Positions 36,077 through 63,947 of a stretch of 64,000 bases of DNA are shown here, one piece after another (the stretch's first letter is position 1; every line of letters starts with the position of its first letter). Origin of the DNA: Candidatus Margulisiibacteriota bacterium (GTDB taxonomy: Bacteria; Margulisbacteria; WOR-1; O2-12-FULL-45-9); contig JBAZZP010000001.1 in the NCBI GenBank assembly GCA_041658745.1, forward strand, positions 165,434-229,433, written 5' to 3'. The notes under the pieces were generated by a model. It saw only the letters and a list, made by a program, of their open reading frames with translations. It did no database searches and was not told the origin of the DNA. A program made the position numbers and the translations under genes.

Positions 36077-36189
36077 AAATTCATCTAAAATATATCTATT
36101 TGACAAAATGAGAGAAAATTATTTCGCCAAACAGCAACACCTTAGCTAAACGGGAACGCCTATTCATTCCTAAAATCACCTCCTTCTTC

Positions 36190-37215: not shown

Positions 37216-37249
37216 ATTATTTAAAACAACCTTTTCCAGCTTATAATCA

Positions 37250-43025: not shown

Positions 43026-43259
43026 TTATTCTTCCTCCTCAAATTTTTCTATCACACTATGGTAGGCCTTTTTTACCTTTGACGGTAAAGAAGGGCTCAA
43101 AAGCTTTAAGATTTCCTTGCCAAGCACACGATATTGGCCACCAATTTTTGCAGCCCGCAAAATTCCCTTTTTTACCAGACGACGAAAGGTAGAATCGCTT
43201 ATTTTTAGAAACTTTTTGGCTTCGTTGGGGGTATAAACCTCAAATTCATTTAATTGCAT
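43026..43259 (-). CDS. small helix-turn-helix DNA-binding protein (excisionase/MerR-type HTH)
   Basis: About 77 aa from the ATG at 43259: MQLNEFEVYTPNEAKKFLKISDSTFRRLVKKGILRAAKIGGQYRV. The ORF-track start at 43283 would lie inside the putative promoter. Confidence 0.5.
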   Translation of the reverse strand: MQLNEFEVYTPNEAKKFLKISDSTFRRLVKKGILRAAKIGGQYRVLGKEILKLLSPSLPSKVKKAYHSVIEKFEEEE

Positions 43260-43273
43260 AAGTATTGAATGTA

Positions 43274-43302
43274 ATAATAACAAAATATTTCATACCTGTC
43301 AA
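43274..43302 (-). promoter_or_regulatory. putative sigma70-like promoter (TTGACA-17nt-TATTAT) upstream of the HTH gene
   Basis: Minus-strand TTGACA (plus 43297..43302) and TATTAT (plus 43274..43279) with a 17-nt spacer, in the 56-nt gap after wzz. Confidence 0.25.
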
Positions 43303-48607: not shown

Positions 48608-49642
48608 TCAACAGCTACACGCCTCTCTTAAGCCAATTGTTTCCCTTTTTATGATTATTCTATACAAGCCACGTGCTATTTTTAAGACTGTGCCAGGGAC
48701 AAAAAGCAATGGAAATATTTTAAACCAGAAAATGGGCAAACTCCAATAATGCGAGAATAAAAATGGAAAATCTACAAAATAAAATTTATTTATATCCTGC
48801 ACCCTTGCCCTAACCGCCCAGGAAAAAACATCATTTTTAATTGATAATTTGTTTACATAACGAACTATTTTAGGATCCTTTAATATTTCCTGGGAAAAAC
48901 CATAATAGGTATTTACATCATGGTGCAGCCGCTCACTCATCCCAGCAGTAAGATCATTCCCCCATCTTCTTTTTACCAGCACAGCCGGCAAATATTTCAA
49001 TCTGCCCTTCCTGCCCCATAATATCGACATGACCATATAAATATGAATATACTTACTCTCGAGATGCTTTTCGTAGTTTTTGACCGCCATCCACGCCTCA
49101 CGCCTAATAACTAAGATTGAAATAAAATTAAAAAGACCAATTAAATACCTATTCATTTGCAAATAATCAATTATCGCCTGGGGGCCAGTAAAATTAAATA
49201 TTTTGGTTTCTGACAGGTCGAGTATTTTTTTTGATTTCATTGATTGAGATGGGACACAATAAAAATCTTCTTTATTTCCCAGATATACATCAACATTTTC
49301 GTTTTTCCTGATTTCATCTAAAAGGGTAACAATAGAATTCGGCGTGGGAAGATCATCATCTCCCAATAACCAGCAATATTGTCCAGAAGAGCACTGCATC
49401 ACTTGCATGCAATTTCGATCATAACCAACATTTTCTTGAATTTTAAAATAATTAATGGCTATTGGGGAGGTTTTGATTAGCTCATTAACTATAGCTTCGG
49501 TATGATCCGTTGATCCATTATCTGATATTACAATTTCCACCTTTCCGGCTTCACTTTTTGGGATAACAGAAAGTAAACAGACTAAAGTCTCTTTTAAAAG
49601 AACTGCTCGGTTATAAGTTGGGATACAAACAGATAAAATCAC
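48608..49642 (-). CDS. family 2 glycosyltransferase
   Basis: 344 aa. LSVCIPTYNRAVLL, VISDNGSTDHT, LLGDDDL. Confidence 0.8.
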   Translation of the reverse strand: MILSVCIPTYNRAVLLKETLVCLLSVIPKSEAGKVEIVISDNGSTDHTEAIVNELIKTSPIAINYFKIQENVGYDRNCMQVMQCSSGQYCWLLGDDDLPTPNSIVTLLDEIRKNENVDVYLGNKEDFYCVPSQSMKSKKILDLSETKIFNFTGPQAIIDYLQMNRYLIGLFNFISILVIRREAWMAVKNYEKHLESKYIHIYMVMSILWGRKGRLKYLPAVLVKRRWGNDLTAGMSERLHHDVNTYYGFSQEILKDPKIVRYVNKLSIKNDVFSWAVRARVQDINKFYFVDFPFLFSHYWSLPIFWFKIFPLLFVPGTVLKIARGLYRIIIKRETIGLREACSC

Positions 49643-49685: not shown

Positions 49686-50447
49686 TTAAACAAATAATAC
49701 TTGGTCATCAATGGCAGCAAACGAACTTTTAAAGATCCCTTTAACACATTTGTCAGCTAATTTTCGCTCTTTCATACTGGGATATTCGGCAGCATCAAAA
49801 TGCACCAAAGCCAACTTTTTGGCTCCCGCCTGCTTTGCAATTAAGGCGCCATCTTCCGGATTAAGGTGCGGCCAATCAATATTATGCTGGCCTGGGCGAA
49901 AAGCCGATTCGGCAATTAATAGATCAGCCTTTTGCGCCAAAGCCACCGCATTTTCACACAACCCAGTGTCCGGGATAAAACTAATTATTTTTCCGTTAAA
50001 ATTAAAGCGCAAACCAAGGCATGGCTCTTTATGCCGCAACAATAAACTATTTTCTAGGAAAGGGAATTGTCCTTTTTTACCATTAATTTCGATAAAGTTG
50101 ATTTTATACTTAAGTTCATCTGGAGATGCGGTTAATGGACTATTGACAAAAGAGCGAATAAATTTCTTCCCGCCGCGTTGCACACAGATATTAAGCCCCT
50201 GTTTAAATGAAAACTTGGCCAAAATATGCAACCCAACAATATGATCGAGATGAAAATGGCTTATGAACAAATAAATTGGTTTATCACTTTTAATATATTT
50301 GTCAATTTTATAGATTCCATTGCCAGCATCAAGGATCACATATTCTTTTGGTGTTTCAATCAAGACACAAAGAGTATTTCCTGTCTTTGTATCATACCAA
50401 CCATTCGTACCTAAAAAAACAATTTTAATTTTTTGCATATTCCCCAC
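49686..50447 (-). CDS. MBL-fold metallo-hydrolase
   Basis: 253 aa. ISHFHLDHIVGL (HxHxDH zinc motif). Confidence 0.65.
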   Translation of the reverse strand: MGNMQKIKIVFLGTNGWYDTKTGNTLCVLIETPKEYVILDAGNGIYKIDKYIKSDKPIYLFISHFHLDHIVGLHILAKFSFKQGLNICVQRGGKKFIRSFVNSPLTASPDELKYKINFIEINGKKGQFPFLENSLLLRHKEPCLGLRFNFNGKIISFIPDTGLCENAVALAQKADLLIAESAFRPGQHNIDWPHLNPEDGALIAKQAGAKKLALVHFDAAEYPSMKERKLADKCVKGIFKSSFAAIDDQVLFV

Positions 50448-50454
50448 TTCTACC

Positions 50455-51555
50455 CTATTTGCGATAAAGTTGTCTTTGGTCAGTTGTTATAAAGTCGTCC
50501 TTTGCAAAAACTTCGTTATAAGGAACCGGCAATGGCTTTCCATAGATTTTATTTGCCACAACATTATTGATAAAGTCTCGATCTTCGGCAATTAAACAAG
50601 TATCAACATATTTGCCAAAATACTTATTATTTAAGCCTCTTTCGATTATATCTTTGAGCGGTTCATTAAAGAAATTGCCCATCGAGACATGAATATACGG
50701 ACAAGGCAAGACATCTCCATATTTTGTTATAGAAACCATCCTTTTTACTGCGATACAACCCAAATCCATACCATAAGAAGGAGACAAATGGGTGAAAACA
50801 TTATATTTCTTCTCAAGTTGTCTCATATAGTCCATATCTTCTCTATCAACTAAACAACTATAATTACCTTCCCAGGCGCCCACCGGTTTCGCATAACTGA
50901 CAAATACCCCAACCCCCATCTTGTTATTTAAATACTCAAGAAAATCGATGAATTCTTGCGATCTAACTCGTTGTTTAGTCACCACTGTCTGCACAATAAT
51001 ATTTAGGCCAGCCTTATGAGCCGCATCAATTGCTCGAAGACAACGCTCATGTGATCCGGGTTTTCTCCTAAAGGCATCGTGGTCATCAACCGAAAGGCTG
51101 TCAAGACTCAGTTGAATCTTATCCACTCCAATTTTTTTTAGATGCTTGGCCCGTTCATCGTCGAATAGCCATCCATTTGTATCACAAGAGATATAAAACT
51201 TTTGCGGATCAATGGCTTCAATTATCTCGTCAAAATCAGGAAAAACAAGAGGCTCTCCCCCCGTTAATACAATATTAGCTAAGCCCATTTCATCAGCTTG
51301 CCGAGAGAGCTCTTTGACATCTTTAGGAGTAAAATAACGGCCGTCTTTTCTGCCTTGAAATCTTTTTATACAACAATGCTCACAAGCAAAATTACAGCGA
51401 TAATCGTATTGGAGCTGAATAATGGCAATACTCTCACCCTTTTTTATTTTTTCGTCAAACTTTTGAACTTTATGATATACCAATGGTTTTTCTTTGAGCA
51501 AAGAATTTCGCTTTTCATTCTCCAATTTGCTTAAGTGCGTATCGCCTTCAGACAT
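50455..51555 (-). CDS. radical SAM enzyme (with C-terminal Cys-rich auxiliary region)
   Basis: 366 aa. CNFACEHC (CxxxCxxC) and NIVLTGGEPLV. Additional Cys residues in the C-terminal third (CIAV...CPY...C). Confidence 0.75.
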   Translation of the reverse strand: MSEGDTHLSKLENEKRNSLLKEKPLVYHKVQKFDEKIKKGESIAIIQLQYDYRCNFACEHCCIKRFQGRKDGRYFTPKDVKELSRQADEMGLANIVLTGGEPLVFPDFDEIIEAIDPQKFYISCDTNGWLFDDERAKHLKKIGVDKIQLSLDSLSVDDHDAFRRKPGSHERCLRAIDAAHKAGLNIIVQTVVTKQRVRSQEFIDFLEYLNNKMGVGVFVSYAKPVGAWEGNYSCLVDREDMDYMRQLEKKYNVFTHLSPSYGMDLGCIAVKRMVSITKYGDVLPCPYIHVSMGNFFNEPLKDIIERGLNNKYFGKYVDTCLIAEDRDFINNVVANKIYGKPLPVPYNEVFAKDDFITTDQRQLYRK

Positions 51556-51566
51556 GTTTTTCCTCC

Positions 51567-52697
51567 CTAAATAATCTCTAGCCCATGACTCCTCAGCACA
51601 GCGACATTTTTGATCAGACTATGTTTTTGCTTTATTGTTCTGGCAACTTCATCAGAATATCCACCGGCTATTATAATTATAGCATCCGGTGGGTCCAGGT
51701 TAAGTGTTTCGGGATCTACTATGGGAAGATGAGAGGCCGGAGTATATTTGCCCTGTTTGAAAGGAGCCGAATCAACCACATACCGTACTTGCTTGGATAA
51801 TTCCATCAATGAAATCAGGGCAAAGGCCTGGTGCCCAGCACCCCATATAGCCACTTTTTGAAACTTACTAATGTAATCCGATAAGGCGTTTTTTAGTTTG
51901 CTTTGATGAAGACAAAAATCGGCAAGTTCCACCTTTTTTCGTTTTCTAACAATCATAGAAATAATATAGTCATGCCAGATTTCTTTACTTTCTAAAATAT
52001 CAAAACCATTGATCTTTAAAGCCGTTTCTAAAGTATCCTCGGTAAAATAAGACAAATGATCGGGAATAAATTCAGAAAATAATTTATTGCGCAATATCAT
52101 ATCAAAGTTTGGCACCTCAATTAATCCAATCCCATCTTCAGCCAGATTGTGTTTAATCCCAGCCAAGATTAAGTTTGGATTAGGCAAATGCTCAAAATAA
52201 TTCAACATAATAAATGCCGCAAAAGGACCACCAACAACAGCCTGGTCTTCTTGTTCAATAAAACCAGCGGAAACTTTTAAGCCATTTTTTACACAGAACT
52301 CAACTGACGTATTTAAATTTTCAATGCCATAGGCATCAACCCCACTCTGCTTAATTAAGGACAAATACTCACCTCGACCACACCCAATTTCGATTACCTT
52401 TTTATTTCTAAGTGAATACTTATCAATTATTTCAGCAAATTGTTTGATACGAAAAGCTCGCATATCATCAGAGAAAGCCGCTGCGCGGATTACGTTCTTA
52501 TAATAAGAGACCGGTTCATTAATTAATTGGACTAAACCACAGCCGGAACACTGATACACATCTAAAGCTACCCCTTTATCTCTTTTTAATCCGATTTTAT
52601 CCGGCAAATCTTGCGCCGATTTTGGCATATTCTCATAACGAAGCAGTGGATCTTGCAACAAACTGTGTCCGCAAATTCGACAAAAGTATTTTTTCAT
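51567..52697 (-). CDS. NDP-hexose C-methyltransferase-like (Zn-ribbon + SAM MTase + C-terminal domain)
   Basis: 376 aa. CRICGH...CSGCG, VIEIGCGRGEY (motif I). Same architecture as 26378..27637. Confidence 0.6.
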   Translation of the reverse strand: MKKYFCRICGHSLLQDPLLRYENMPKSAQDLPDKIGLKRDKGVALDVYQCSGCGLVQLINEPVSYYKNVIRAAAFSDDMRAFRIKQFAEIIDKYSLRNKKVIEIGCGRGEYLSLIKQSGVDAYGIENLNTSVEFCVKNGLKVSAGFIEQEDQAVVGGPFAAFIMLNYFEHLPNPNLILAGIKHNLAEDGIGLIEVPNFDMILRNKLFSEFIPDHLSYFTEDTLETALKINGFDILESKEIWHDYIISMIVRKRKKVELADFCLHQSKLKNALSDYISKFQKVAIWGAGHQAFALISLMELSKQVRYVVDSAPFKQGKYTPASHLPIVDPETLNLDPPDAIIIIAGGYSDEVARTIKQKHSLIKNVAVLRSHGLEII

Positions 52698-52701
52698 TTA
52701 A

Positions 52702-53202
52702 TTAAAGATATTTGCCATAGATTTCATCATGCACGGGAATTATGTTTTTGGGACATCCTTTATGCCACAACCACTCATTGTTTTTGGGGGAATCAACATT
52801 GAGACAGTGTTGCTTCTCATCTAAAGGGGTCACCAACTGGCAACCATACAACAAAGAAATAAAATGACCACGATCTTTTCGCTCAAGAATTATTTCATTG
52901 ATCGCCAAAGGCAATGGAGCATATTTCACCTCGACGTTTAATTCGTTTTTGGCAACGGCAGTAATTCTTTCTTTCATAGTTTCTTTATATCTTATAATTC
53001 CACCAGGGATATGCCATCCCGGGGGTCCGTAATTATCGGCTCTCCAGGTTAACAAAGTCTCTCCCTGGGAGTTTTTTATCAACAAATCTACATTAATCAA
53101 TGGCGTTATTCTACTGACAAAATAAAACACCTCTTCCGGCAAACCTGCAGTAGGGTTAACAATGCTTTTTTCTATTTGATTAATTGCATCCCTTATTTTC
53201 AT
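52702..53202 (-). CDS. NUDIX-fold hydrolase-like protein (degenerate Nudix box; GDP-mannose mannosyl hydrolase-like)
   Basis: 166 aa. GGIIRYKETMKERITAVAKNELNV is a partial Nudix signature. Confidence 0.45.
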   Translation of the reverse strand: MKIRDAINQIEKSIVNPTAGLPEEVFYFVSRITPLINVDLLIKNSQGETLLTWRADNYGPPGWHIPGGIIRYKETMKERITAVAKNELNVEVKYAPLPLAINEIILERKDRGHFISLLYGCQLVTPLDEKQHCLNVDSPKNNEWLWHKGCPKNIIPVHDEIYGKYL

Positions 53203-54080
53203 AATAATTCTTCTTTATTGATGATTTGTTTATTTGCACTATACCAATTATATAAATCCAAAATAGCCTCATCAAGCGGAGTAAACCTAAACTTTTCTAA
53301 TTCCTTTAAAAGCTGCATATTATTTCCACTATATTCGCGGCAAGGGCTATCAGAATTATCGATTATTTCGATATCTTTTCCAGCTATTTTCTTAACAATT
53401 TTTGCCAATTCAGCCGCTTTGATCTCCAGGCCAGAACAAACATTATATACCTGTTGCAAAGGAGAATTATTAACAAACCATCTTACAATCGCAACCAAAT
53501 CGTTAATATATAAGTAATCGTAATAAGTATTTTGCCTTATCATTATTGGAAGATCAAATAACGCTGAGCAACAAGCCCTTGAAATAAACCGATAGCGCCA
53601 ATCCTCGTATTTACCAAAGACAGAAAACACCCTGAGGTTATAAATATTTTTGCTTTGCAGAGCATGCTTTGTCATAACATATTTAGAAAAACCATACTGC
53701 TCCGTAGGCACATGTTGATCATAATAACCTTCATCCATTTTTAACCGCCAATTCTCTCTCCCAAATTCTGCCCCCGAACCAAAATACAACAACTTTCCAT
53801 AATGATCATTACATCGCGCGACATTAAAAAACATTCTTAAGTTGTTTTCTAATACTTTAGCAGGATCTTTGATGGAATATTTGGGTGCCGGATCATGGGT
53901 AGCTGCATGAATAACAACGTCAAATCGGCCATTTTTTATGAGGTCTAAAACCTTATTGGAATCTAAAAGATCAAGCTCAGAATGATTGCAGGCGATTACC
54001 TCAAAATCATGACATAATTGCTCAAATAGATTACGAGCAATAAAACCTTTTCCTCCAGTAATTAATAATTTCTTCGCCAT
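53199..54080 (-). CDS. SDR-family NAD(P)-dependent sugar epimerase/reductase
   Basis: 293 aa. LLITGGKGFIARNL, YGFSKYVMT (YxxxK). Confidence 0.75.
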   Translation of the reverse strand: MAKKLLITGGKGFIARNLFEQLCHDFEVIACNHSELDLLDSNKVLDLIKNGRFDVVIHAATHDPAPKYSIKDPAKVLENNLRMFFNVARCNDHYGKLLYFGSGAEFGRENWRLKMDEGYYDQHVPTEQYGFSKYVMTKHALQSKNIYNLRVFSVFGKYEDWRYRFISRACCSALFDLPIMIRQNTYYDYLYINDLVAIVRWFVNNSPLQQVYNVCSGLEIKAAELAKIVKKIAGKDIEIIDNSDSPCREYSGNNMQLLKELEKFRFTPLDEAILDLYNWYSANKQIINKEELL

Positions 54081-54095
54081 TGGTCTCCTAGCCCC

Positions 54096-55178
54096 TTAAT
54101 GCTTAGCAATTGGGGGATGTCCCTTCAAATACTCCCCAACCAAATGCATATCACACTCATCAGAACATTTTAACCCTTTTGACAAATTAAAGTGAGCTTC
54201 CCTAAATGCTTTATATTTATCTCCATTCCAAATAGCATATAATGACTCTTCTTTTGCATTCCCCAAAATGATTTCATTATTATAATCTTCCATGCACATT
54301 ACCACTTCGGCATTAGATTTTACGGTCATAGACATCCACGGATGCTTACAGATTTCTGACCAGTGGACCGATTTTGTTCCGTGGTAGTTCTGCCGATACC
54401 ATTGCTGATCTTCACTTTTTAAATACAAATAGACATCCAAATCTTTAAAGGCAGCTTTTAGTTTTTGATATTCTTCTTCTTGCCAAGAGTTGTTTAGATC
54501 CAACATTGTAATAACAATTCTGGTGGTAAGCCCGCGCTGTTTTTTGAGATTTATAAGTTCTAATATTTTATTATAGCTTTGGGTAAAATTGGACTGATCA
54601 CCCCTAATCTCCTTATGCCTTGCGTCATCAACGCTTTCGATCGAATACTTGATATAACTCAAACCATTTTCAAACATTCTAACTGTAGTAGCAAGATCTA
54701 TATTCGCAGGATTACAACTAAAGTATGAATGAAAACCCCTCTCAGTTAGCAATTTAACATATTCGCTCATGTTTTTATCAAGCAATGGATCGCCATAACC
54801 ATGCAGTTGAATTACTTTAGGAATAATATATAAGAAAAAATTATTCTCGCTCTGCTCTTCTTTTTCAATGTTATATTGTTCTTTAACAAATTTTTCCCAG
54901 GTTGACCATTCATCCTTTGACCAGGGACGCAATTGATCAATAATATGAATAAAGGTGTCTTTATCAATTGTTTCAACTTTTCTCGTCATCCGAGTGGTTC
55001 TGGGACACATTTTACATTTCATATTACAGGCATTCGTAGTCTCTATGTTATAAACAACCGGCTCTTTTCTACGCATACCTTCAAATTGCCCGACAATGAA
55101 ATCATGATCAAAGGTTTCCCCATTCAACATCCTGTTCACCAAATCATGTGATTGCATATAAAAGTGAATATCAAACAT
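54096..55178 (-). CDS. radical SAM enzyme (second; Cys-rich C-terminus)
   Basis: 360 aa. CNMKCKMC (CxxxCxxC); C-terminal CMEDYN...C..C cluster. Confidence 0.75.
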   Translation of the reverse strand: MFDIHFYMQSHDLVNRMLNGETFDHDFIVGQFEGMRRKEPVVYNIETTNACNMKCKMCPRTTRMTRKVETIDKDTFIHIIDQLRPWSKDEWSTWEKFVKEQYNIEKEEQSENNFFLYIIPKVIQLHGYGDPLLDKNMSEYVKLLTERGFHSYFSCNPANIDLATTVRMFENGLSYIKYSIESVDDARHKEIRGDQSNFTQSYNKILELINLKKQRGLTTRIVITMLDLNNSWQEEEYQKLKAAFKDLDVYLYLKSEDQQWYRQNYHGTKSVHWSEICKHPWMSMTVKSNAEVVMCMEDYNNEIILGNAKEESLYAIWNGDKYKAFREAHFNLSKGLKCSDECDMHLVGEYLKGHPPIAKH

Positions 55179-55202: not shown

Positions 55203-56171
55203 TTACTTTGTTTTAAAAGCCAATACTTTTAAGGCCAAGGAAAGCGCATTAATCCCATCTTCCAGTGAACAAAGTGGGAGCTCTTTTCCATTAACGATAG
55301 AAATAAAATGGCGCATTTCTTCAACAAACAGACTATTTCTTTCAAATTCATGGGAAGGAGAAAAATGCTCCCAATTTAATAATTTGTTCCTATAAATTGA
55401 AAGTTTACCATCCGTATTATTCCAACCGATTGTCCCCTCGGTGCCAACAATCTCTAAAGTGTGTGTGGGTGGCTTCTGCAAATAATTGAGTTGTAATACC
55501 CCTAAGGCTCCATTTGGAAAACGTAAAATAGCTTCCGCAGTATCTTCCACTGCAATGCCCAAATCCCCTCTGTTTTCAGCACAAGCCCACTCTACCGTTG
55601 GTTTACCAAGCAACCAATTTAAATAATCAAATGGATGGCACAGGGTTAAAACAACTCCCCCTCCCAAATCGGGCCTAGCGGCATAACTACTTTTATAATC
55701 TTCCCAGGGGTGCATATCCGGCAAATATTCTCCCCAACGCGCACAAATTGATACTGGCCGACCTATTTCTCCATTTAAAATTAGTTGGGAAGCAATTTTT
55801 AGTGTGGGATGAAACCTAAATTGAAAACCAACTAAGAGTTTTCCCTGGCCCTGCAGCAAAGCAGCTTGCAATTTATCGATCTTTTCAAGTGAATTAGAAA
55901 TAGGTTTCTCTAGCAAAATATGGCATCCAGCTTTGGCCGCCGGAATTGCGACATCAAGGTGCAATGCCGATGGATTGGAGATAATAAATGCATCTGGATT
56001 AAGCGCCAAGGCCGCTTCGATACTTGTTACTACCGGATATTGTTGCAACTCTTCGGCAGGTAATGAGCTCAAGTTGTTGCGCAGCAAAACAATGTCACTT
56101 TCTCCAAGCACAACCAAGTTTTTTAAATGGCGCCGACCAATTGACCCAAGTCCAGCAATAACATATTTCAT
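55203..56171 (-). CDS. Gfo/Idh/MocA family oxidoreductase
   Basis: 322 aa. VIAGLGSIGRRH, LLEKPIS. Confidence 0.8.
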   Translation of the reverse strand: MKYVIAGLGSIGRRHLKNLVVLGESDIVLLRNNLSSLPAEELQQYPVVTSIEAALALNPDAFIISNPSALHLDVAIPAAKAGCHILLEKPISNSLEKIDKLQAALLQGQGKLLVGFQFRFHPTLKIASQLILNGEIGRPVSICARWGEYLPDMHPWEDYKSSYAARPDLGGGVVLTLCHPFDYLNWLLGKPTVEWACAENRGDLGIAVEDTAEAILRFPNGALGVLQLNYLQKPPTHTLEIVGTEGTIGWNNTDGKLSIYRNKLLNWEHFSPSHEFERNSLFVEEMRHFISIVNGKELPLCSLEDGINALSLALKVLAFKTK

Positions 56172-56174: not shown

Positions 56175-57983
56175 TTATTCTTCTATGGGGGGAATAATCA
56201 TGTTTGATAAAAATTCCTGGCGATCAAGGAAAGGCCAAAGGTCCTCCAATGGTTTTGAGATCATAGTCCCATCCGGTTTTTGCATGGTCATCATACTGGG
56301 AGCCCTAGGCTCGTCAGGAGGATTAATAACCTCACAAACAATTGGTCCCGGCATATTTATAACTTCCCTTATTTTTTCGGTTAATCCATTTTGATCGCTA
56401 ATTTTTAGAGTGGGCAAGCCGTATGCTTCGGCTATCTTGCAGATATCGGGCAAACCTAAACCACTACCATTATCTGCCCCAGTTAATCTCCCAAAATAGC
56501 GTAGCTGAGATGTCCTAATAGAGGAATAACCTTGATTGTTAAGTACAAAGATCTTAATCGGTAATTTGAGGCGAGCAATGGTGGCAAGTTCCTGAATATT
56601 AAATTGGATGCCACCATCGGCCTCAATACAAATTGTCCGTTTTCCACCACTAGCCAGACAAGCTCCAATACTCGCTGGCAAACCATTCCCCATCGAACCG
56701 AGGGCGGTGGTATTTAAAACCCTTTGCCCCCTTTTCGCTCTAAAAGCCAGTAGAAAGATCTCAATTCCTGCCCCCGAACTGGTAGGGATGATAATATCAT
56801 CTGAATTAAGTTCCTCCGAAAGAACATCAGTAAAAGCATAGACGCTAACCAATTTTTCTTGTAAATATTTAGGCAAAACCACTGGATACTTCGCCTTCCA
56901 CTCCCGACATCTAGCCATCCATCCATCTCGCTTATTGGGCAATAGCTTGTCGCATTGAAAAAGCATTTCTTGAATAACAGCCTTGGCATCAAAACAAATA
57001 GGAATATCAATTTTAGTCTGCATTTTACTTATTTCTGTCTGGTCAATATCCACCATAACTTTTTTTGCGGCCCTGGCAAACTTTTCATGAGAATAACCGG
57101 TGATCACAGTATCTAAACGAGCCCCAAGGCTAATTAACAAATCTGAATTTTGCAGTGCAAAATTTGCCCCACGGGGAGCAACGGGCCCGGGCCGGCCAAC
57201 CAGCAAAGGATGAGTGTCGGGCAATAAATCCAGCGCCGGCCAAGTCAGTAAAACTGGGATTTGCAATCGCTCGACCAAAGACAAAACATCATTGATCGCA
57301 TTAGATAATCGCACCCCATTTCCAATCAATAAGATTGGCCGTACCGACTCATTTAGCAATTTGAATATTTTTGCAACAGAAGCTTTCATTTCTTTTTCTT
57401 GCTCTTCATTTACCAATTCGATTTGATCAAACAAAGACAACGAATCAGTTTCAATTATGGCCGCTTGAACATCGAGCGGAATATCAAGCCAAACCGGGCC
57501 AGGTCGGCCAGTTTGTGCAAGATAAATCGCTTTTTCAAGATGATAACGGATAGAATTAGGATCCATAATGGTAACCGAGTATTTTGTGATCGATTTAATA
57601 ATTGTAACAATATCCAGCTCTTGTACCCCATTTTGCCGGACACCCAGATTGCCAATAAGGTCAGAACACTTCACTTGTCCCGAAATAAACAAACAAGGAG
57701 TAGAATCTAACCACGCCCCTGCTACTCCAGTAATTGCATTGGTTCCGCCGGGGCCGGTTGTCACCATCGCAACTCCTAAAGAATTATTAACAATTCTAGA
57801 ATACGTTTCCGCGGCCATGGCACTAGCTTGCTCATGCTGATTACAGATAAATTCAATGCCCTTCTGGTGGCCAATAGAATCGTTGAGATGCATTGCTCCT
57901 CCGCCTGGAACCATAAAAACATGCTTAACCCCATGATCCATAAGAAACTGCGCAATGTAATCAGAAAGTTTTATTTTCATCAA
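56175..57983 (-). CDS. TPP-dependent acetolactate-synthase-like enzyme (YerE-like candidate)
   Basis: 602 aa. All three AHAS domains are visible: N-terminal VKHVFMVPGGGAMHL...TTGPGGTN, a central domain, and a C-terminal TPP domain. Confidence 0.8.
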   Translation of the reverse strand: MMKIKLSDYIAQFLMDHGVKHVFMVPGGGAMHLNDSIGHQKGIEFICNQHEQASAMAAETYSRIVNNSLGVAMVTTGPGGTNAITGVAGAWLDSTPCLFISGQVKCSDLIGNLGVRQNGVQELDIVTIIKSITKYSVTIMDPNSIRYHLEKAIYLAQTGRPGPVWLDIPLDVQAAIIETDSLSLFDQIELVNEEQEKEMKASVAKIFKLLNESVRPILLIGNGVRLSNAINDVLSLVERLQIPVLLTWPALDLLPDTHPLLVGRPGPVAPRGANFALQNSDLLISLGARLDTVITGYSHEKFARAAKKVMVDIDQTEISKMQTKIDIPICFDAKAVIQEMLFQCDKLLPNKRDGWMARCREWKAKYPVVLPKYLQEKLVSVYAFTDVLSEELNSDDIIIPTSSGAGIEIFLLAFRAKRGQRVLNTTALGSMGNGLPASIGACLASGGKRTICIEADGGIQFNIQELATIARLKLPIKIFVLNNQGYSSIRTSQLRYFGRLTGADNGSGLGLPDICKIAEAYGLPTLKISDQNGLTEKIREVINMPGPIVCEVINPPDEPRAPSMMTMQKPDGTMISKPLEDLWPFLDRQEFLSNMIIPPIEE

Positions 57984-58484
57984 TTAGCCTTTTACAGACA
58001 GTAACAAATCTAATAATTCTCTTACTGCACCAGCCCCGCCAGAACGTTTGGTAACGATGTTAGATACTTTGACTATAGTTGAGTGAGCATCTTTTGGACA
58101 GACAGACAAGCCAACTATTTTTAGCGCCGGCAGATCAATAATATCATCACCTATAAAACAAATTTCGGATAAACCAAAATTATATTTTTTAGCATATTCG
58201 ATAACCGCCTTAGCCTTATCATGGCATCCCTTATAAACATCATTTATCTTCAACTTTTTTGCGTAACGAGAGACAATTGCCATCCCGGAAGGACTACTTT
58301 CACCAGAAACTAAACCAATTTTAATCCCCGCCTTCTGGGCCAGGGAAATTCCCGTCCTATCGGCAAAACAAAATCTCTTCATCTCTAAGCTATCAGAATC
58401 CAACCAAAAAGACCCATCAGTTAAAACACCATCAACGTCCATTAAAACTGCTTTTATTCTTTTTATTTCTTTTCGCACTATCAA
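57984..58484 (-). CDS. HAD-superfamily KdsC-family phosphatase (Kdo-8-P / nonulosonate-9-P phosphatase-like)
   Basis: 166 aa. LMDVDGVLTDG (DxDG), FIGDDIIDLP. Confidence 0.8.
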   Translation of the reverse strand: MIVRKEIKRIKAVLMDVDGVLTDGSFWLDSDSLEMKRFCFADRTGISLAQKAGIKIGLVSGESSPSGMAIVSRYAKKLKINDVYKGCHDKAKAVIEYAKKYNFGLSEICFIGDDIIDLPALKIVGLSVCPKDAHSTIVKVSNIVTKRSGGAGAVRELLDLLLSVKG

Positions 58485-58506: not shown

Positions 58507-59376
58507 TTATACATTTCTAAGTCTTTTAATAATAGGCTCTTCACATGCCAATATTTTTTTGACTCCATTCCCCATAGATGTTTCAACCAGACGAATATCC
58601 CTAATTAATCGATTTAAGCCATTTGGTTCTAGAGAGGCGGCATGATCAGATCCCCACATAGCTCGATCCAAAGTAATATGGCGTTCTATAACACACGCTC
58701 CCATCGCCCGAGCAGCAACTGAAGAGGGTAAGCCCGTTTCGTGACCAGAATATCCAACCAAAACCTTATATCTGTTTTTTAAAAAAGGGATCAAACGCAA
58801 ATTGAGATCTTCGTATCGAGCGGGATAAGCACTGCAACAATGCAGCAAAATTAAATTGTCCTTTTGTAAAACTTCAACCGCATGATCCAGTTGTTCTAAA
58901 GATGACATGCCGGTGGATAATATTACTGTTTTACCCTGTTTTCTTACGTGTTTTAGCAAAACATCATCCGTTAATTTTGCGGCCGGGATCTTAATGCAAG
59001 GGGTGTTATATTGAGCAATAAAATCAACTGAATCAATATCCCACACCGAAACCAACCATGTAATACCAATTTCTTTGCAATACTTATTGATTTCATCATA
59101 CTCTTTCTTGCCAAATTCTATTTTATTGCGGTAATCGAAATAGGTCATATTTCCCCAGGGGGTCTCTCGCAGAATATCTCGTTGACTTAAAGGTACGCAT
59201 AATTCTGGATTGCGTTTTTGAAATTTAACGGCATTACAGCCCGCATCAGCAGCGACCGCAATCAGCTTCTTCGCAATATCTATCTCCCCATTGTGATTTA
59301 TCCCTATCTCCGCAATAAAATACGAAGGGCAATCATCACCAACTTGAACATTACCAATCTCTAAATTACTTGTCAT
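58507..59376 (-). CDS. third NeuB-family synthase paralog (short form, no SAF domain)
   Basis: 289 aa. YFIAEIGINHNGE, KFQKR, KIPAAK, GYSGHETG. Confidence 0.8.
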   Translation of the reverse strand: MTSNLEIGNVQVGDDCPSYFIAEIGINHNGEIDIAKKLIAVAADAGCNAVKFQKRNPELCVPLSQRDILRETPWGNMTYFDYRNKIEFGKKEYDEINKYCKEIGITWLVSVWDIDSVDFIAQYNTPCIKIPAAKLTDDVLLKHVRKQGKTVILSTGMSSLEQLDHAVEVLQKDNLILLHCCSAYPARYEDLNLRLIPFLKNRYKVLVGYSGHETGLPSSVAARAMGACVIERHITLDRAMWGSDHAASLEPNGLNRLIRDIRLVETSMGNGVKKILACEEPIIKRLRNV

Positions 59377-59396: not shown

Positions 59397-60734
59397 TTAA
59401 GCGAACTTTTTAATCGTACTTATAATAAAGTCAATCATTTTTCCTGTCATCCCGGGATAAACCCCAACCCAAAAAGTTTGATTCATTACAATATCGGTAT
59501 TTATTAATTTTCCAACAACACGAAAGCCCTTTCTTTTTTTTCTCATTTCATCAAAACAAGGATGTTTTATCATATTGCCAGCAAAGAGCATGCGGGTTTG
59601 TATCCCTTTTGATTCAAGATATTGCACAATTTGATCCCGCGTGTAGCCAGAGGATTTCTTTACCGTCAGCAAAAAACCAAACCAGCTCGGATCAGAATAT
59701 TCCGCAATCTCAGGCAAAACAAAAACATCTTGCATTTGATTGAGGCCAGATCGCAATATTTGCCAGTTTTTTTTCCTAGCTTCAACAAAAGCAGGCAGTT
59801 TTTCTAATTGAGCGCAACCAATGGCTGCCTGCAGATCGGTAGCTTTTAAATTGTATCCAAAATGCGAATAAACATATTTATGATCATAACCAAAAGGAAG
59901 TTCACCAAATTGCTGGGTAAAACGTCGTCCACAGCTATTATCTATTCCGGATGGACACCAACAGTCTCTCCCCCAATCACGCAGAGAGTTAACTATTTTA
60001 TTTAGCTGCCTATCATTAGTATAAACGGCACCACCTTCTCCCATCGTCATATGGTGAGGAGGATAAAAGCTAGAAGTTGCAACGTGGCCAAAGGTCCCAG
60101 TTTGATGCCAGCTCCCCTTATACTTATACCTAGATCCCAAAGAATCACAATTATCTTCAATTAACCAGAGGTTATGTTTATCACAAAAGTTTTTTACCGC
60201 ACTAATATCGAAAGGATTTCCCAAAGTATGGGCCAAGATAACCGCCTTGGTTTTCTTGGAAAGGGCCTTCTTTAATTGGGAACAATCAATATTATATGAG
60301 GGAAGAGAAACATCTACAAAGACCGGAATTGCTCCATATTGTACAATGGGAGCGATGGTGGTGGGGAAACCAGCCGCAACAGTTATGACTTCATCCCCTT
60401 TCTTTATCCTTTTATTTCCCAACTTAGGCGAAGTTAAAGCCATAAAAGCCAAAAGGTTAGCAGAAGAACCAGAATTTACAAGCGAACAGAACTTTATCCC
60501 CAAATACGCAGCAAATTCTTTTTCAAATCTTTCAGCATAACGACCTGTGGTCAACCAAAAATCCAGAGAAGCATCAATCAAATTGGCAATTTCTTTCTCA
60601 TCAAAAACCCTGCCGGCATATGAAATACGATCACCTGGAACAAATTCATGCTGTGTAGACAAATGTTTAAATTCATAATGGTTGATGGCTGCTTGGATAG
60701 CTTTTTTTCTTAGTACTTTATCTTTACTTTTCAT
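59397..60734 (-). CDS. rfbH: CDP-4-keto-6-deoxyglucose 3-dehydrase (E1; RfbH/DdhC-like PMP + [2Fe-2S] enzyme)
   Basis: 445 aa, DegT fold, but the PLP-lysine position reads SFYPPHHMTMGEGG (His in place of Lys). It also has DCWCPSGIDNSCG (C-x-C-x7-C iron-sulfur motif). Confidence 0.8.
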   Translation of the reverse strand: MKSKDKVLRKKAIQAAINHYEFKHLSTQHEFVPGDRISYAGRVFDEKEIANLIDASLDFWLTTGRYAERFEKEFAAYLGIKFCSLVNSGSSANLLAFMALTSPKLGNKRIKKGDEVITVAAGFPTTIAPIVQYGAIPVFVDVSLPSYNIDCSQLKKALSKKTKAVILAHTLGNPFDISAVKNFCDKHNLWLIEDNCDSLGSRYKYKGSWHQTGTFGHVATSSFYPPHHMTMGEGGAVYTNDRQLNKIVNSLRDWGRDCWCPSGIDNSCGRRFTQQFGELPFGYDHKYVYSHFGYNLKATDLQAAIGCAQLEKLPAFVEARKKNWQILRSGLNQMQDVFVLPEIAEYSDPSWFGFLLTVKKSSGYTRDQIVQYLESKGIQTRMLFAGNMIKHPCFDEMRKKRKGFRVVGKLINTDIVMNQTFWVGVYPGMTGKMIDFIISTIKKFA

Positions 60735-60773: not shown

Positions 60774-61652
60774 CTACCTCCAATATAATATTACTATTAC
60801 AGCAAACAGCCAGCCAAACATCGCACCTATTAATGGGATATCTGACAGCATCAAGTTTTCTGCGCTGCCACCCTCATCTTTTTTATAAACCAAATATAGA
60901 TAACGGAACAATCCAAAAATGACAAAAGGAACCGTATATATCAGGTTAGAAGTATTAAATTTTTGCACCGTCTCAGAGGATAATGTATAGAGAGAATAGG
61001 TTAGGATTATTGCCGCAGTAACCACAGAGATCAATTGGTCAAGATATTGAAGGTTATATTCTTGAAAAACAAGGCGATGAATAACCGCATTTTCACCTAA
61101 AACCAAAATTTCGTTCCGGCGTTTACAAAAAACAATAAACAGAGCCAGAAGAAAGGCACAGACAAGAAACCAAGGAGTAAAAACAACCCCAATTACTTCT
61201 ACCCCGGCAACCGCACGAATGACATAGCCAGCTGCAATTATAAAAGCATCAAGAATAACTATTTTTTTCAAACCAAAAGTATAACCAAGCATTATTATGA
61301 TATATGCCACAACAAGATAACAAAAGTTAACATTTAATTGATAAGAAAAAAACAAGGAAAAAGGCAAAGCCACAATAACAAACAATTTAGCGATAATCGG
61401 AGACAAGGCTCCACTAGCAAGCGGACGCAGCTTCTTAGAAGAATGCAGTTTATCATTTTGCATATCTTTCAAATCATTAATTAAATAAATACAACTGGTT
61501 ACAGCACAAAACAAGAGAAAGGCATAAACAGTATTGATGAATAAAGGCAGATTAGATAATTTTAAAGCAAATAAAATCCCGGCAAAAATGATTAGGTTTT
61601 TGAGCCATTGCTTGGGGCGTAGGGATATCCACAAATAATAAAACTGCTTCAT
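60774..61652 (-). CDS. UbiA-family prenyl-phosphate phosphoribosyltransferase (DPPR-synthase-like)
   Basis: 292 aa, about 8 TM segments. N-terminal LRPKQWLKNLIIFAG and the aspartate motif INDLKDMQNDK (NDxxDxxxD). Confidence 0.65.
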   Translation of the reverse strand: MKQFYYLWISLRPKQWLKNLIIFAGILFALKLSNLPLFINTVYAFLLFCAVTSCIYLINDLKDMQNDKLHSSKKLRPLASGALSPIIAKLFVIVALPFSLFFSYQLNVNFCYLVVAYIIIMLGYTFGLKKIVILDAFIIAAGYVIRAVAGVEVIGVVFTPWFLVCAFLLALFIVFCKRRNEILVLGENAVIHRLVFQEYNLQYLDQLISVVTAAIILTYSLYTLSSETVQKFNTSNLIYTVPFVIFGLFRYLYLVYKKDEGGSAENLMLSDIPLIGAMFGWLFAVIVILYWR

Positions 61653-62707
61653 TGCATGTAATCCTTAATTTGACCGATACAAACCTCTCGCAAATCCTGC
61701 CTATTTTTGTATGCTAGTGTCCAGTCCATCACTTTTTGCAAGGCCATATCAAGATCCCACTGCGGTTTCCAACCTAGTTCTTTTTTGGCCTTGGCAATAT
61801 TTAAACGCAAATAATGGGTTTCGTGCGGATGTTTTCCACGGTCAATAGCATACGAAGCTCCCTGCCCCCATTTTTGGCAGAGTCGCTTTACAATCCAATC
61901 AACCGTCTTAGCATCACTTTTTTCCGGACCAAAGTTCCAGGCACCTGCATATTTCTCCCCATCAAGACAAAGTTTTTGCGCCAATAATAGATAGCCCGTT
62001 AATGGTTCTAACACATGCTGCCAGGGACGAACCGCTTTGGGACAGCGAACCATAATTTTTTCGTTTTTCAAAATCGCCCGCACAAAATCGGGAATTAAGC
62101 GATCGGCCGCCCAATCTCCACCCCCAATAACGTTACCGGCTCGAGCCGTAGCCACTGCCACCCTAGGGCTCAAAAAGGAACGGCGATAAGCCGCGGTAAC
62201 TATTTCACTGCAAGCCTTACTGCTGGAATACGGATCATAACCACCCAGTGGATCCCCCTCCAAATAACCCTGCCCCCTACTCCCTATCCCCTTCACCTCG
62301 TAACATTTATCCGTAGTAATATTGACAATGGCTTTTACCGCTTTGCAGCTGCGGGCCGCCTCTAACAAATTAACGGTTCCAAGAACATTGATTGTGTAGG
62401 TTTCAACCGGATTCTTGTATGATTCTCTAACCAGCGGCTGGGCAGCCATATGGATTATGATTTCTGGTTTTGCTTTGTGTATTACTTTTATTAGGTTGTC
62501 GCTATCTCGAATATCACCGATATGTGAATCAACCAGTTGGTCGACCCGACAGAGCTTAAAAAGGCTTGGGCTAGTGGGCGGATTCAAGGCATACCCCGTA
62601 ACTTCAGCTCCCAAATAATTTAGATAAATTGAGAGCCAGGTGCCTTTAAATCCGGTCTGTCCGGTAATAAATACCTTGCGGCCCTTCCAAAAACTACTTT
62701 TTTTCAA
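61649..62707 (-). CDS. rfbG: CDP-glucose 4,6-dehydratase
   Basis: 352 aa. FWKGRKVFITGQTGFKGTWL, HMAAQPLV, YSSSKACSE, RAGNVIGGGDWAADRLIPD. Near-collinear with enterobacterial RfbG. Confidence 0.9.
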   Translation of the reverse strand: MKKSSFWKGRKVFITGQTGFKGTWLSIYLNYLGAEVTGYALNPPTSPSLFKLCRVDQLVDSHIGDIRDSDNLIKVIHKAKPEIIIHMAAQPLVRESYKNPVETYTINVLGTVNLLEAARSCKAVKAIVNITTDKCYEVKGIGSRGQGYLEGDPLGGYDPYSSSKACSEIVTAAYRRSFLSPRVAVATARAGNVIGGGDWAADRLIPDFVRAILKNEKIMVRCPKAVRPWQHVLEPLTGYLLLAQKLCLDGEKYAGAWNFGPEKSDAKTVDWIVKRLCQKWGQGASYAIDRGKHPHETHYLRLNIAKAKKELGWKPQWDLDMALQKVMDWTLAYKNRQDLREVCIGQIKDYMQ

Positions 62708-63947
62708 TACGAGACCTCTTTACATATTTCTTAATACTATTATCTGGGCTTTTCCCAATAAAGGTATAGTCCGAACGTAAATATTGTTCAATTTCTGGAT
62801 GATCATAAGCCACATCATAAAAAACAATAGTTCCACTCGGGGAATTTTTAATAAATGCAATTAATTGATTGAAATCCTTTTTAAACATAAGCTCCTGGGG
62901 ACCTGGCATATTTACAGGATAAGACTTGCCTGCCGCTAAAGAATATATTCCTGAGTGCATTGAAATAATCAACACCATATTAATTGATCTATAATCCTTT
63001 GAAATAAAATTAACATTCTTGATTATTGCCGAATTAGGCTGGATAACGCTAAGCTTCCAACGCTGATAAATGACATTATATGCAAAGGGCAAGGAGGAAA
63101 CGCAAAACAACAGGGAAAAAATAAGCCCAAAACTAATGCAATAGTTAAACAGTTGATAGATTGAGTTTTTATTTTGTTTTAGATATTCATTTAGCTGATC
63201 TAGATAAATGATTAGCAATAATATGGCCGGATAGGAAACAGTCACCAGAACAAAATCATGACTTCGTCCTTGATAGTATACAAATATCCCAAATCCCACA
63301 AAAGACACAAATTGAATCAACATGCTTTTTTCATTTGCTTGACGATCGATTAATGCTTTTATGCCTAGAAAAGCACCAATTAAATAAAGAAAATAAACAA
63401 TTATCCAAGGATGAAAGAACTTCATTGGGATCATCTTATAACCATAAGAATAATATGCCTGCTGGTAAATAAAATTAGACGCATAATTGGGAATGTTCCC
63501 GCTAAATGAAAAAATATACAGTGAATATAATGTTAATACGCCTATAAAAAAAGCCAGAGCAACCATAAGATGCTTCAACACAAGCCAATAGTTTCGAGTT
63601 AGCAAAGATTGATAAATCAATAGTATTATCCAAGATAATAAAACTACAATTCCGGTATCAAAATTCCAGAATAGGGCTATTGTTGCAACAAAAAAAGATA
63701 GATAATAAATTAATTTGCTTTTACTTGATATATACCTGCCTGCCAAATAACAAATACAAGCAGGGAAAAAGAACCTTATAGGAAAATACTGAAAATAGCA
63801 GTCATGATTGTTCGAATATATACGTGAAAATAGATAGCACCAAAAAACAATTACCACATATCCAGCAGAGGCGATAAGCTTATCATTAATATATTCTTTG
63901 ATAAACAAGTAAAGAAAGACCAACGACAACAACATTATAATAGACAT
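62694..63947 (-). CDS. polytopic integral membrane protein (candidate GT-C glycosyltransferase or polymerase)
   Basis: 417 aa, about 11 hydrophobic segments. TAATG overlap with an upstream partial gene at the window edge. Confidence 0.35.
   Translation of the reverse strand: MSIIMLLSLVFLYLFIKEYINDKLIASAGYVVIVFWCYLFSRIYSNNHDCYFQYFPIRFFFPACICYLAGRYISSKSKLIYYLSFFVATIALFWNFDTGIVVLLSWIILLIYQSLLTRNYWLVLKHLMVALAFFIGVLTLYSLYIFSFSGNIPNYASNFIYQQAYYSYGYKMIPMKFFHPWIIVYFLYLIGAFLGIKALIDRQANEKSMLIQFVSFVGFGIFVYYQGRSHDFVLVTVSYPAILLLIIYLDQLNEYLKQNKNSIYQLFNYCISFGLIFSLLFCVSSLPFAYNVIYQRWKLSVIQPNSAIIKNVNFISKDYRSINMVLIISMHSGIYSLAAGKSYPVNMPGPQELMFKKDFNQLIAFIKNSPSGTIVFYDVAYDHPEIEQYLRSDYTFIGKSPDNSIKKYVKRSRIEKK

Follow-up and report, generated by a model that had tools for sequence, protein, structure and literature searches.

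In a Candidatus Margulisiibacteriota bacterium (assembly GCA_041658745.1, contig JBAZZP010000001.1), a DNA stretch of 64,000 nucleotides, here called the window, carries two radical S-adenosylmethionine (SAM) enzymes, rSAM-A (54096-55178) and rSAM-B (50455-51555), within a gene cassette whose most likely product, judging from the families and the order of its genes, is a C-methylated 3,6-dideoxyhexose with an acyl branch at C4, destined for a surface glycan. It is very probable that both are dedicated sugar-pathway enzymes, and in related genomes they are found as separable modules, not as one functional pair. The companions of rSAM-B are a thiamine diphosphate (ThDP)-dependent enzyme, a C-methyltransferase, a Nudix protein and RfbH, while those of rSAM-A are a NeuB-type synthase, a phosphatase of the haloacid dehalogenase (HAD) family and either a Gfo/Idh/MocA oxidoreductase (Gfo) or a DegT aminotransferase. 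An earlier sequence-only reading of the interval 49686-55178 had taken the two as joint unusual steps of one operon, a view that the comparative genomics does not bear out.

The whole window is one polysaccharide locus of uniform composition, with all its genes on the minus strand. The interval holds six open reading frames (ORFs), transcribed in the order rSAM-A, short-chain dehydrogenase/reductase (SDR), Nudix protein, C-methyltransferase, rSAM-B and metallo-β-lactamase (MBL)-fold protein; ORFs and Pfam confirm the two radical SAM genes, the MBL gene, the C-methyltransferase and the SDR where the sequence-only reading had placed them. From the Gfo gene (55203-56171, an NAD(P) oxidoreductase by Pfam), which lies just beyond the interval, through the MBL gene, the intergenic gaps range from -4 to +24 nt, a spacing that fits a single operon. 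Of the sugar-gene setting described earlier, the C-methyltransferase, SDR, Gfo and MBL neighbours are all present, but the Nudix gene and the upstream ThDP, NeuB, HAD and RfbH genes had been overlooked.

Loci related through rSAM-B were gathered from 80 metagenome loci and from Thermodesulfovibrio hydrogeniphilus, Elusimicrobia and Gastranaerophilales, and their ORFs were clustered. Eighteen of them extend 8 kb or more to either side of rSAM-B and are called full loci. All 18 full loci contain the ThDP enzyme, the C-methyltransferase, the Nudix protein and a NeuB-type gene; RfbH is found in 16/18, and a HAD phosphatase, of one of three non-orthologous kinds, also in 16/18; the 293-residue SDR of the window occurs in 14/18, and a different, 355-residue SDR in 4. 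The MBL gene, which the sequence-only reading had grouped with the sugar genes, does not belong to this conserved set (3/18). Wherever a locus anchored on rSAM-B reaches at least 9 kb, rSAM-B is 67-76% identical to the window protein, with the exception of L009, which carries a radical SAM relative at 24% identity, outside the rSAM-B family. Identities are 42-76% for the ThDP enzyme, 50-62% for the C-methyltransferase and 44-63% for the Nudix protein. No other protein of the cassette is as conserved as rSAM-B, the signature enzyme of this set of genes across phyla. In a library of representatives at 50% identity, its orthologues form one cluster (72% identity, 607 bits), followed by graded relatives (56%, 51-53% and onward), with 229 clusters at E <= 1e-30.

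Homologues at E <= 1e-10 number 1509 for rSAM-A and 2283 for rSAM-B, the best hundred of each being 62-79% identical to the window protein, with one metagenomic sequence at 95% in the case of rSAM-B. Their source names include WOR-1, Saganbacteria, Elusimicrobia, Thermodesulfovibrio, Planctomycetaceae, Candidatus Gorgyraea, Nanoarchaeota and an uncultured archaeon. Families of more than 1500 homologues, with such identities, indicate real, constrained genes and not chance ORFs.

The putative keto-acid part of the cassette is swapped as a block. In most loci, a fusion of NeuB, SAF and cupin domains is followed by a protein of about 200 residues, which has no Pfam match and whose consensus "WDvDDVLN" is a HAD motif I, and then by the ThDP gene. 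Five loci, including the window, have instead, in the same position, a short NeuB-type synthase (NeuB289), a KdsC-type HAD phosphatase, the ThDP gene, Gfo and rSAM-A, and in a third set of loci a phosphoglycolate-phosphatase-like HAD ("IIFDFDGTL") directly follows the ThDP gene. The presence of one of these three kinds of HAD in 16/18 loci indicates a phosphatase step kept by non-orthologous replacement, and NeuB and the phosphatase are usually encoded directly upstream of the ThDP gene. In three further loci, L091-L093, anchored on rSAM-A homologues of 64-66% identity, NeuB289, HAD and rSAM-A occur with CMP-transferases (PF02348) and with Gfo or DegT; these loci have no ThDP enzyme, no orthologue of the E1-type RfbH (only a DegT paralogue at 28-30% identity) and no rSAM-B. 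Gfo accompanies rSAM-A in all five window-type cassette loci and in L091 (50% identity), DegT adjoins it in L092 and L093, and in L091 a CMP-transferase fused to a KdsC-like HAD (8684-9910) lies next to it. The occurrence of the rSAM-A trio apart, with CMP-transferases, makes rSAM-A part of an ulosonic-acid module plugged into a cytidine diphosphate (CDP)-hexose cassette. The claim of the sequence-only reading that both radical SAM enzymes belong to sugar metabolism stands, as both have conserved sugar-gene partners in many genomes; its assumption of nucleotide-sugar substrates probably does not hold for rSAM-A, which would act on a free ulosonic acid.

rSAM-A matches PF04055 with 47.5 bits against a gathering score of 29.5 and PF13186 with 50.8 bits against a cutoff of 21.5. 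Its CX3CX2C motif, C51/C55/C58, is invariant across 24 homologues, and so are C155 and the C-terminal C277, C295, C338 and C342, whose spacing, C-X17-C-X42-C-X3-C, is that of a single 4-Cys auxiliary site. rSAM-B matches PF04055 with 102.5 bits (E 3.6e-29) and the SPASM family PF13186 with 24.8 bits, above the same cutoff of 21.5; its motif is C54/C58/C61, and its invariant C-terminal cysteines are C267, C285 and C320. The N-terminal CxxxCxxC motifs and the C-terminal cysteines noted earlier in both proteins are real, and of the SPASM/twitch-like appearance ascribed to them the twitch half holds and the two-cluster SPASM half does not. rSAM-A is a twitch-type enzyme with one auxiliary cluster site, cluster binding being predicted from the Cys pattern; a full SPASM identity, with 7-8 C-terminal Cys and two clusters, is ruled out by the presence of only four invariant C-terminal Cys. 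The 3-Cys pattern of rSAM-B fits the definition of the twitch type (one 4-Cys or 3-Cys site) and points to the same class, and a two-cluster SPASM is ruled out for it too, with only three conserved C-terminal Cys despite the PF13186 match above cutoff. MoaA has a similar C-terminal three-Cys cluster site, with an open iron. In agreement with the earlier claim that a cobalamin-binding domain is missing, the Pfam scan found no B12-binding domain PF02310 in either protein; a B12-dependent methylase identity was rejected on this ground.

No curated NCBIfam model reaches its cutoff with either enzyme. The best score of rSAM-A is 68 against 380, and rSAM-B scores 99 against 284 for MoaA, 63 against 400 for BlsE, 57 against 180 for viperin, 108 against 500 for AhbD and 69 against 381 for PqqE. 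The subfamily assignment by hidden Markov models that the sequence-only reading had proposed has thereby been carried out; it yields no curated equivalog. By sequence and fold, BtrN and DesII are nearest to rSAM-A, and MoaA, BlsE and viperin to rSAM-B. The sole sequence match of rSAM-A in the PDB is BtrN (E 8.5e-9). Its AlphaFold2 model (mean predicted local distance difference test, pLDDT, 86) also finds BtrN first in Foldseek (4m7t, E 8.6e-11), followed by DesII, both of them radical SAM enzymes of carbohydrates, the match to 4m7t having 17% identity and template modelling (TM) scores of 0.47/0.66. The nearest relatives of rSAM-B, by sequence and fold, are MoaA, SuiB/SkfB/PqqE, BlsE and viperin.

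BtrN, the 2-deoxy-scyllo-inosamine dehydrogenase of butirosin biosynthesis, shares with rSAM-A the CX3CX2C motif and a single C-terminal 4-Cys site with BtrN-like spacing. It has about 250 residues compared to the 360 of rSAM-A, which adds an N-terminal helical extension and an insertion at about residues 80-120; rSAM-A also differs in the extra invariant Cys155 and in its ulosonic acid/NeuB context, in place of an aminocyclitol one. HygY and SpeY are further twitch-type radical SAM enzymes acting on sugars. Carbinol oxidation is proposed for rSAM-A because of the BtrN-like auxiliary site, the best fold match and the DegT gene next door in L092 and L093. BtrN works together with the aminotransferase BtrR/S, a pairing to which rSAM-A and DegT would be parallel. 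A role as a dehydrogenase or epimerase acting on the ulosonate, by analogy with these enzymes, can be proposed only tentatively, at somewhat less than an even chance. HygY and NeoN suggest an alternative, in which rSAM-A would itself be a direct epimerase with the invariant C155 as hydrogen donor.

MoaA (GTP 3',8-cyclase), BlsE (cytosylglucuronate decarboxylase) and viperin are only 14-25% identical to rSAM-B and occur in a wholly different genomic context. All three act on nucleotides or nucleoside sugars. The MoaA-like site, these nucleotide-acting relatives and the constant C-methyltransferase and Nudix neighbours are the grounds for proposing that rSAM-B carries out a radical step with the CDP-linked sugar as substrate; each specific reaction that could be named for it is, taken singly, improbable.

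The CDP-hexose part of the cassette starts near a CDP-glucose 4,6-dehydratase (61649-62707; TIGR02622, 478 bits against a cutoff of 278), which follows a truncated membrane-protein ORF (62694-63947), and a nucleotidyltransferase of the glucose-1-phosphate cytidylyltransferase type (NTP_transferase, 261 residues) lies just past the end of the window on the same contig. RfbH, the E1-type CDP-6-deoxy-4-hexulose 3-dehydrase (59397-60734), scores 730 bits against a cutoff of 423 with NF011936. It has a CxCx7C motif at 258-268 as well as C196, and its SFYPPHH stretch at 222-228 is without Lys; this is the stretch in which related aminotransferases have their active-site Lys. The spacing to the first Cys, presumably X57 in E1/RfbH, is X61 here. 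With these features the protein is classed as an E1/RfbH, a family marked by a [2Fe-2S] Cys motif and by a His in place of the PLP lysine, with CDP-4-keto-3,6-dideoxyglucose as its predicted product.

The ThDP enzyme (56175-57983), which has the Pfam N, M and C domains, finds its best PDB match in JanthE (8rph), with a full-length score of 390 bits, compared to 277 bits for the top acetolactate synthase, and it stays below the cutoff of all acetolactate synthase equivalog models of NCBIfam. Its ThDP motif is ADG-X24-NN. JanthE is YerE-like and has CDG in place of GDG in the ThDP motif (PMC12188165, PMC12247030). With RfbH and the dehydratase in the same operon, the window protein is best described as a putative YerE-like carboligase, its closeness being judged by JanthE and not by the YerE sequence. 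NeuB289 (58507-59376; PF03102, 266 bits) is a phosphoenolpyruvate (PEP)-condensing synthase of 289 residues without the SAF domain; its best PDB match is 6ncs (290 residues), and it is below the NeuB and PseI equivalog cutoffs. The KdsC-type HAD phosphatase (57984-58484) scores 134.7 bits with TIGR01670, for which the cutoff is 107, and 129 bits with the KDN-9-P phosphatase model, under its cutoff of 180. No gene of the aldolase/citrate-lyase family is present in the window cassette or among the Pfam-checked recurrent families of related loci.

Taken together, these assignments suggest the following scheme, which we hold with a probability of about 0.5 as a whole: the ThDP enzyme would couple CDP-4-keto-3,6-dideoxyglucose with an alpha-keto acid derived from NeuB, rSAM-A and Gfo acting on the acid and rSAM-B, C-methyltransferase, Nudix protein and SDR on the CDP-sugar. 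By family assignment, the cytidylyltransferase, the CDP-glucose 4,6-dehydratase and the E1-type RfbH would supply CDP-4-keto-3,6-dideoxy-D-glucose. These enzymes already cover the obvious deoxygenations, at C6 and C3, a type of step that the sequence-only reading had suggested for the radical SAM pair. Gene order and the module swap suggest that the NeuB-type synthase and the HAD phosphatase would make a free 3-deoxy-2-ulosonic acid, that is, an alpha-keto acid, and that the ThDP enzyme would decarboxylate it and add the remainder to the C4 ketone. rSAM-A may take the carbinol hydrogen of the ulosonic moiety with the 5'-deoxyadenosyl radical, and the 4-Cys cluster would accept the electron, which would yield a ketone. 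Gfo may then reduce the ketone, for a net epimerisation, whereas in other genomes DegT would aminate it instead. rSAM-B, with the C-methyltransferase, the Nudix protein and the SDR, would carry out a radical step at an unactivated carbon of the CDP-linked sugar, candidates being C-C cyclisation, epimerisation and dehydration, and the MBL protein would be an optional phosphodiesterase.

Within this scheme, the addition of a YerE-type C4 branch to a 3,6-dideoxyhexose is probable, and the NeuB product as the ThDP donor, proposed from gene content and order, falls just short of an even chance. CMP-transferases (CTP_transf_3) occur in only 2/90 rSAM-B-related loci, L053 (5499-6218) and L037, a frequency that disfavours a CMP-activated ulosonic acid as the usual end product, and the compact 11-gene cluster of T. 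hydrogeniphilus has NeuB and a HAD-like gene and no CMP-transferase. Given this scarcity and this absence, the simplest reading is that the ThDP enzyme consumes the NeuB product. Genes for a glycosyltransferase of family 2 (GT2) and GtrA follow the cassette in many related loci, in keeping with a nucleoside diphosphate (NDP)-sugar transferred to a lipid carrier.

Several points weigh against the scheme. Ulosonic acids with 8-9 carbons exist mainly as cyclic hemiketals and might serve poorly as donors for a ThDP enzyme, and, as with YerE, plain pyruvate might be the donor. The Nudix protein, which resembles GDP-mannose mannosyl hydrolase, has no necessary role in it and would fit better if an NDP-sugar were hydrolysed before a NeuB condensation. 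About 13-20 kb downstream in the window lie a CMP-transferase gene and two further NeuB genes, with which rSAM-A, NeuB and HAD could feed a CMP-ulosonate instead, and both L053 and L037 carry their CMP-transferase inside the cassette. No E3-type reductase for RfbH is present in the loci, the only gene of this kind being an FNR-like one of 247 residues beside RfbH in L033. The context of rSAM-A was sampled in only three independent loci and five cassette loci; the fold matches of rSAM-A and rSAM-B have TM scores of about 0.5 and 13-25% identity for the top matches, and the AlphaFold2 model of rSAM-B is of moderate confidence (pLDDT 77.8). Literature searches on radical SAM with YerE, RfbH/NeuB, nonulosonic acid/C-methyltransferase and O-antigen/synthases found no description of the cassette.

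Some of the same facts would be explained if two independent pathways lay side by side, namely a CDP-linked, C-methylated yersiniose-type sugar with an acetyl branch from pyruvate, to which rSAM-B would belong, and a Kdo- or Kdn-like ulosonic acid made by NeuB289, HAD, rSAM-A and Gfo and activated by the CMP-transferase at 37250-37984, with the ThDP enzyme not using the NeuB product. This arrangement, which we regard as unlikely, accounts for L091-L093, where the rSAM-A/NeuB/HAD module stands with CTP_transf_3 and without ThDP enzyme, RfbH and rSAM-B, for the CMP-transferase and additional NeuB genes of the window and for the CMP-transferase inside the cassette of L053, and YerE itself takes pyruvate (PMC9306805). 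It is at odds with the constant presence of NeuB (18/18) and HAD (16/18) in the full rSAM-B loci, usually directly upstream of the ThDP gene, with the rarity of CMP-transferases (2/90) and with the T. hydrogeniphilus cluster, and the CMP-transferase of the window belongs to a complete legionaminic/pseudaminic-type module of its own.

A nonulosonic-acid logic is less probable still. There, the CDP-sugar would be tailored by RfbH, the ThDP enzyme, C-methyltransferase, SDR and rSAM-B and released as a free aldose, either through hydrolysis by the Nudix protein or through cleavage by Nudix or MBL followed by HAD, after which NeuB and PEP would give a branched deoxy nonulosonic acid. Such a route explains Nudix, HAD and NeuB all together and would let an MBL phosphodiesterase join in the cleavage; the closest resemblance of the Nudix protein is to GDP-mannose mannosyl hydrolase, and the Nudix family here has an invariant His. 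That hydrolase frees the sugar from GDP-mannose with a His as catalytic base, and the order of hydrolase and then NeuB is the rule in the Leg, Pse and Neu pathways. However, an ulosonic end product requires CMP activation, and the CMP-transferase is nearly always missing; the GT2 and GtrA genes behind the cassette are those expected for an NDP-sugar, and the NeuB-cupin fusions and the KdsC-type phosphatase point to sugar phosphates of central metabolism. The chance that the two radical SAM enzymes are housekeeping proteins of tRNA or rRNA modification or of cofactor synthesis, located in a sugar locus by accident, is negligible. The top NCBIfam scores do fall to cofactor enzymes (AhbD, MoaA, NirJ and the tungsten cofactor maturase), but they are far under the cutoffs, as the values for MoaA and AhbD illustrate, and the sugar-gene neighbourhood is kept across phyla in dozens of loci. 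A housekeeping match was what the sequence-only reading had named as decisive against itself, and with no NCBIfam model near its cutoff that objection fails. The preferred reading remains that of the acyl-branched CDP-sugar with a NeuB-derived donor.

The NDP-hexose C-methyltransferase (51567-52697), a distant relative of TcaB9 and TylC3, matches PF13489 (63.8 bits) and PF08484 (58.6 bits) above cutoff and the zinc domain PF08421 below it (21.2 against 31.3). It has four Cys at positions 6, 9, 50 and 53, and its match to TcaB9 in the PDB (E 1.7e-15) covers residues 6-238. The GDP-mannose mannosyl hydrolase-like Nudix protein (52702-53202) has a degenerate Nudix box; it scores 41 bits with NF011963, below the cutoff of 146, and matches PDB entry 1rya with E 1.6e-7 over residues 22-89, and the invariant residues of its family are G68, E74, R79, E87 and H113. 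It may bind or hydrolyse an NDP-sugar, feeding NeuB, or have an editing function. The extended SDR of 293 residues (53199-54080; PF01370, 90 bits) is a candidate YerF-like enzyme or 4-keto reductase/epimerase.

The MBL-fold protein (49686-50447; PF12706, 59 bits) has 253 residues and an intact HxHxDH motif, "SHFHLDH". Its best matches are RNase Z, the 250-residue hydrolase 6kns and 1zkp, and its homologues carry weak or faint matches to PF23023 (Anti-Pycsar_Apyc1), while the protein itself is below every curated cutoff. The identity as a ribonuclease Z (TIGR02651), which has about 300 residues and a flexible-arm exosite, is ruled out by a score of 105.5 against 293 bits, split into two separate stretches, and by the length of 253 residues. 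A role as core pathway enzyme is ruled out as well, in view of its low frequency in the full loci and its homologues in unrelated contexts; those found by tblastn at 51-58% identity adjoin respiratory-complex, restriction-modification and chemotaxis genes. The protein resembles the short RNase Z, YhfI and Apyc1-type phosphodiesterases in fold, motif and length (about 250 residues), and differs from them in its place within a sugar operon, in the window as in a small number of relatives, most homologues being elsewhere in genomes. It probably belongs to a generic family of short RNase Z-like phosphodiesterases and would be an accessory that only some lineages have taken up, namely those of the window, L017 and L049; weak evidence suggests a few further co-occurrences with the cassette.

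Outside the core set, at least one extra radical SAM gene is found in 10/18 full loci, and up to four additional ones occur in related cassettes (L011, 5602-7410; L007, 1643-3286; L022, 3532-4584 and 6543-7781). They comprise two B12-binding families of about 601 and about 547 residues (f11 and f15), one of them with a TPR tail, a radical SAM protein of 411 residues paired with GT2, and another SPASM radical SAM protein; FkbM-type methyltransferases and a DUF362 protein are also among the additions in related loci. The extra radical SAM genes suggest that the same sugar is extensively methylated or tailored by radical chemistry. In L033, the FNR-like NAD-binding protein beside RfbH (6070-6813) may be an E3 equivalent.

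In the window, a UbiA-family membrane protein similar to decaprenyl-phosphate phosphoribosyltransferase (60774-61652; NF008977, 258 bits against a cutoff of 234) is wedged between the CDP-glucose dehydratase and RfbH, and it adjoins RfbH in L021 too. Downstream of the cassette, a GT2 glycosyltransferase (48608-49642) is the likely user of the finished nucleotide sugar, and a methyltransferase, RmlA/RmlB-like genes, Wza and Wzz also lie on this side. An ORF of 85 residues with an HTH_17 domain (excisionase/MerR-like; 43026-43283) lies in the operon between Wzz and a UDP-sugar dehydrogenase. The legionaminic/pseudaminic-type module (29449-39000) is complete, with a CBS-NTP transferase, a PglD-like acetyltransferase, a NeuC-like 2-epimerase, DegT, a 4,6-dehydratase, the NeuB paralogues (36190-37215 and 37981-39000) and the CMP-transferase (37250-37984). 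It also encloses an ATC_hydrolase-like ORF (34466-34927) and an ORF of 385 residues without Pfam match (34949-36106). A third deoxy-sugar set (23905-29421) consists of a GDP-mannose 4,6-dehydratase-like gene, GT2, a short formyltransferase, DegT, a canonical NDP-hexose C-methyltransferase (26378-27637; PF08484, 159 bits) and a second Nudix gene (25912-26364). A pair resembling the alpha and beta subunits of pyruvate dehydrogenase E1 (6484-8443, with 4142-6462 and 8490-9503; E1_dh and Transket_pyr/Transketolase_C) has a formyltransferase and two aminotransferases as neighbours. The pair could form another ThDP-dependent system for sugar acyl-branching, of the two-component type mentioned in PMC12247030. 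A gene of the PNP_UDP_1 purine/uridine phosphorylase family, paired or fused with a phosphoribosyltransferase (476-1222 in the window; L092, 15478-16773; L095, 14270-15612), recurs beside these polysaccharide loci and beside an MBL homologue.

The closest known systems are the acyl-branched sugars yersiniose (YerE/YerF), erwiniose (ErwE), caryophyllose (MMAR_2332) and gastriose (MyGE), and a search on branched-sugar names turned up only one paper on them (Steitz et al., 2022, PMC9306805). It shows that functionalised C4-C8 alpha-keto acids are taken as substrates by YerE-like enzymes from the clusters for erwiniose, caryophyllose and gastriose, and it proposes a unifying scheme that consists of CDP-4-keto-3,6-dideoxyglucose, a hydroxylated alpha-keto acid made by an aldolase, a ThDP carboligase, a reductase and, in some cases, a methyltransferase. 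The cassette has in common with these clusters the cytidylyltransferase, the 4,6-dehydratase, E1/RfbH, the YerE-like carboligase, a candidate enzyme making the keto acid, an SDR-type reductase, a SAM methyltransferase and a glycosyltransferase. In place of the class II pyruvate aldolase of those clusters, it has the NeuB-type synthase and the phosphatase. One to five radical SAM enzymes and the Nudix protein are integral to it, none of which is described in the known acyl-branched clusters; it also encodes no E3 reductase, and its hosts are anaerobic, mostly uncultured phyla. The pair of NeuB289 and KdsC-family HAD resembles the supply of Kdo or Kdn, in which a Kdo-8-P or KDN-9-P synthase works with a KdsC-type phosphatase, but in the window-type loci no CMP-transferase adjoins the pair and the ThDP gene follows.

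So far, radical SAM enzymes that act on sugars have been described almost exclusively in antibiotic pathways (BtrN, DesII, AprD4, BlsE). The cassette would extend the acyl-branched-sugar scheme in two ways, through a keto-acid donor from a NeuB-type synthase and a phosphatase and through radical tailoring, and a cultured carrier in which the sugar could be sought is T. hydrogeniphilus JCM 13991. A further-reaching idea, which we consider doubtful, is that rSAM-B may be a new functional class of radical SAM enzymes, catalysing an unprecedented step, such as a C-C cyclisation that ties the acyl branch to the ring or a reaction at an unactivated carbon, on a CDP-sugar with an ulosonic-derived branch. 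Cassettes that include up to four further radical SAM enzymes and B12-dependent radical SAM methylases would then make higher-carbon, poly-C-methylated branched sugars of a family not seen before, common on cell surfaces across anaerobic uncultured phyla (Margulisiibacteriota, Saganbacteria, Elusimicrobia, Nitrospirota, Omnitrophota and Melainabacteria). If the proposed scheme is true, it would provide new carboligase donors and radical sugar chemistry for biocatalysis and would help the prediction of glycans from metagenomes. Two radical SAM families, each of more than 1500 sequence clusters, are fixed parts of surface-sugar pathways in many anaerobic phyla.

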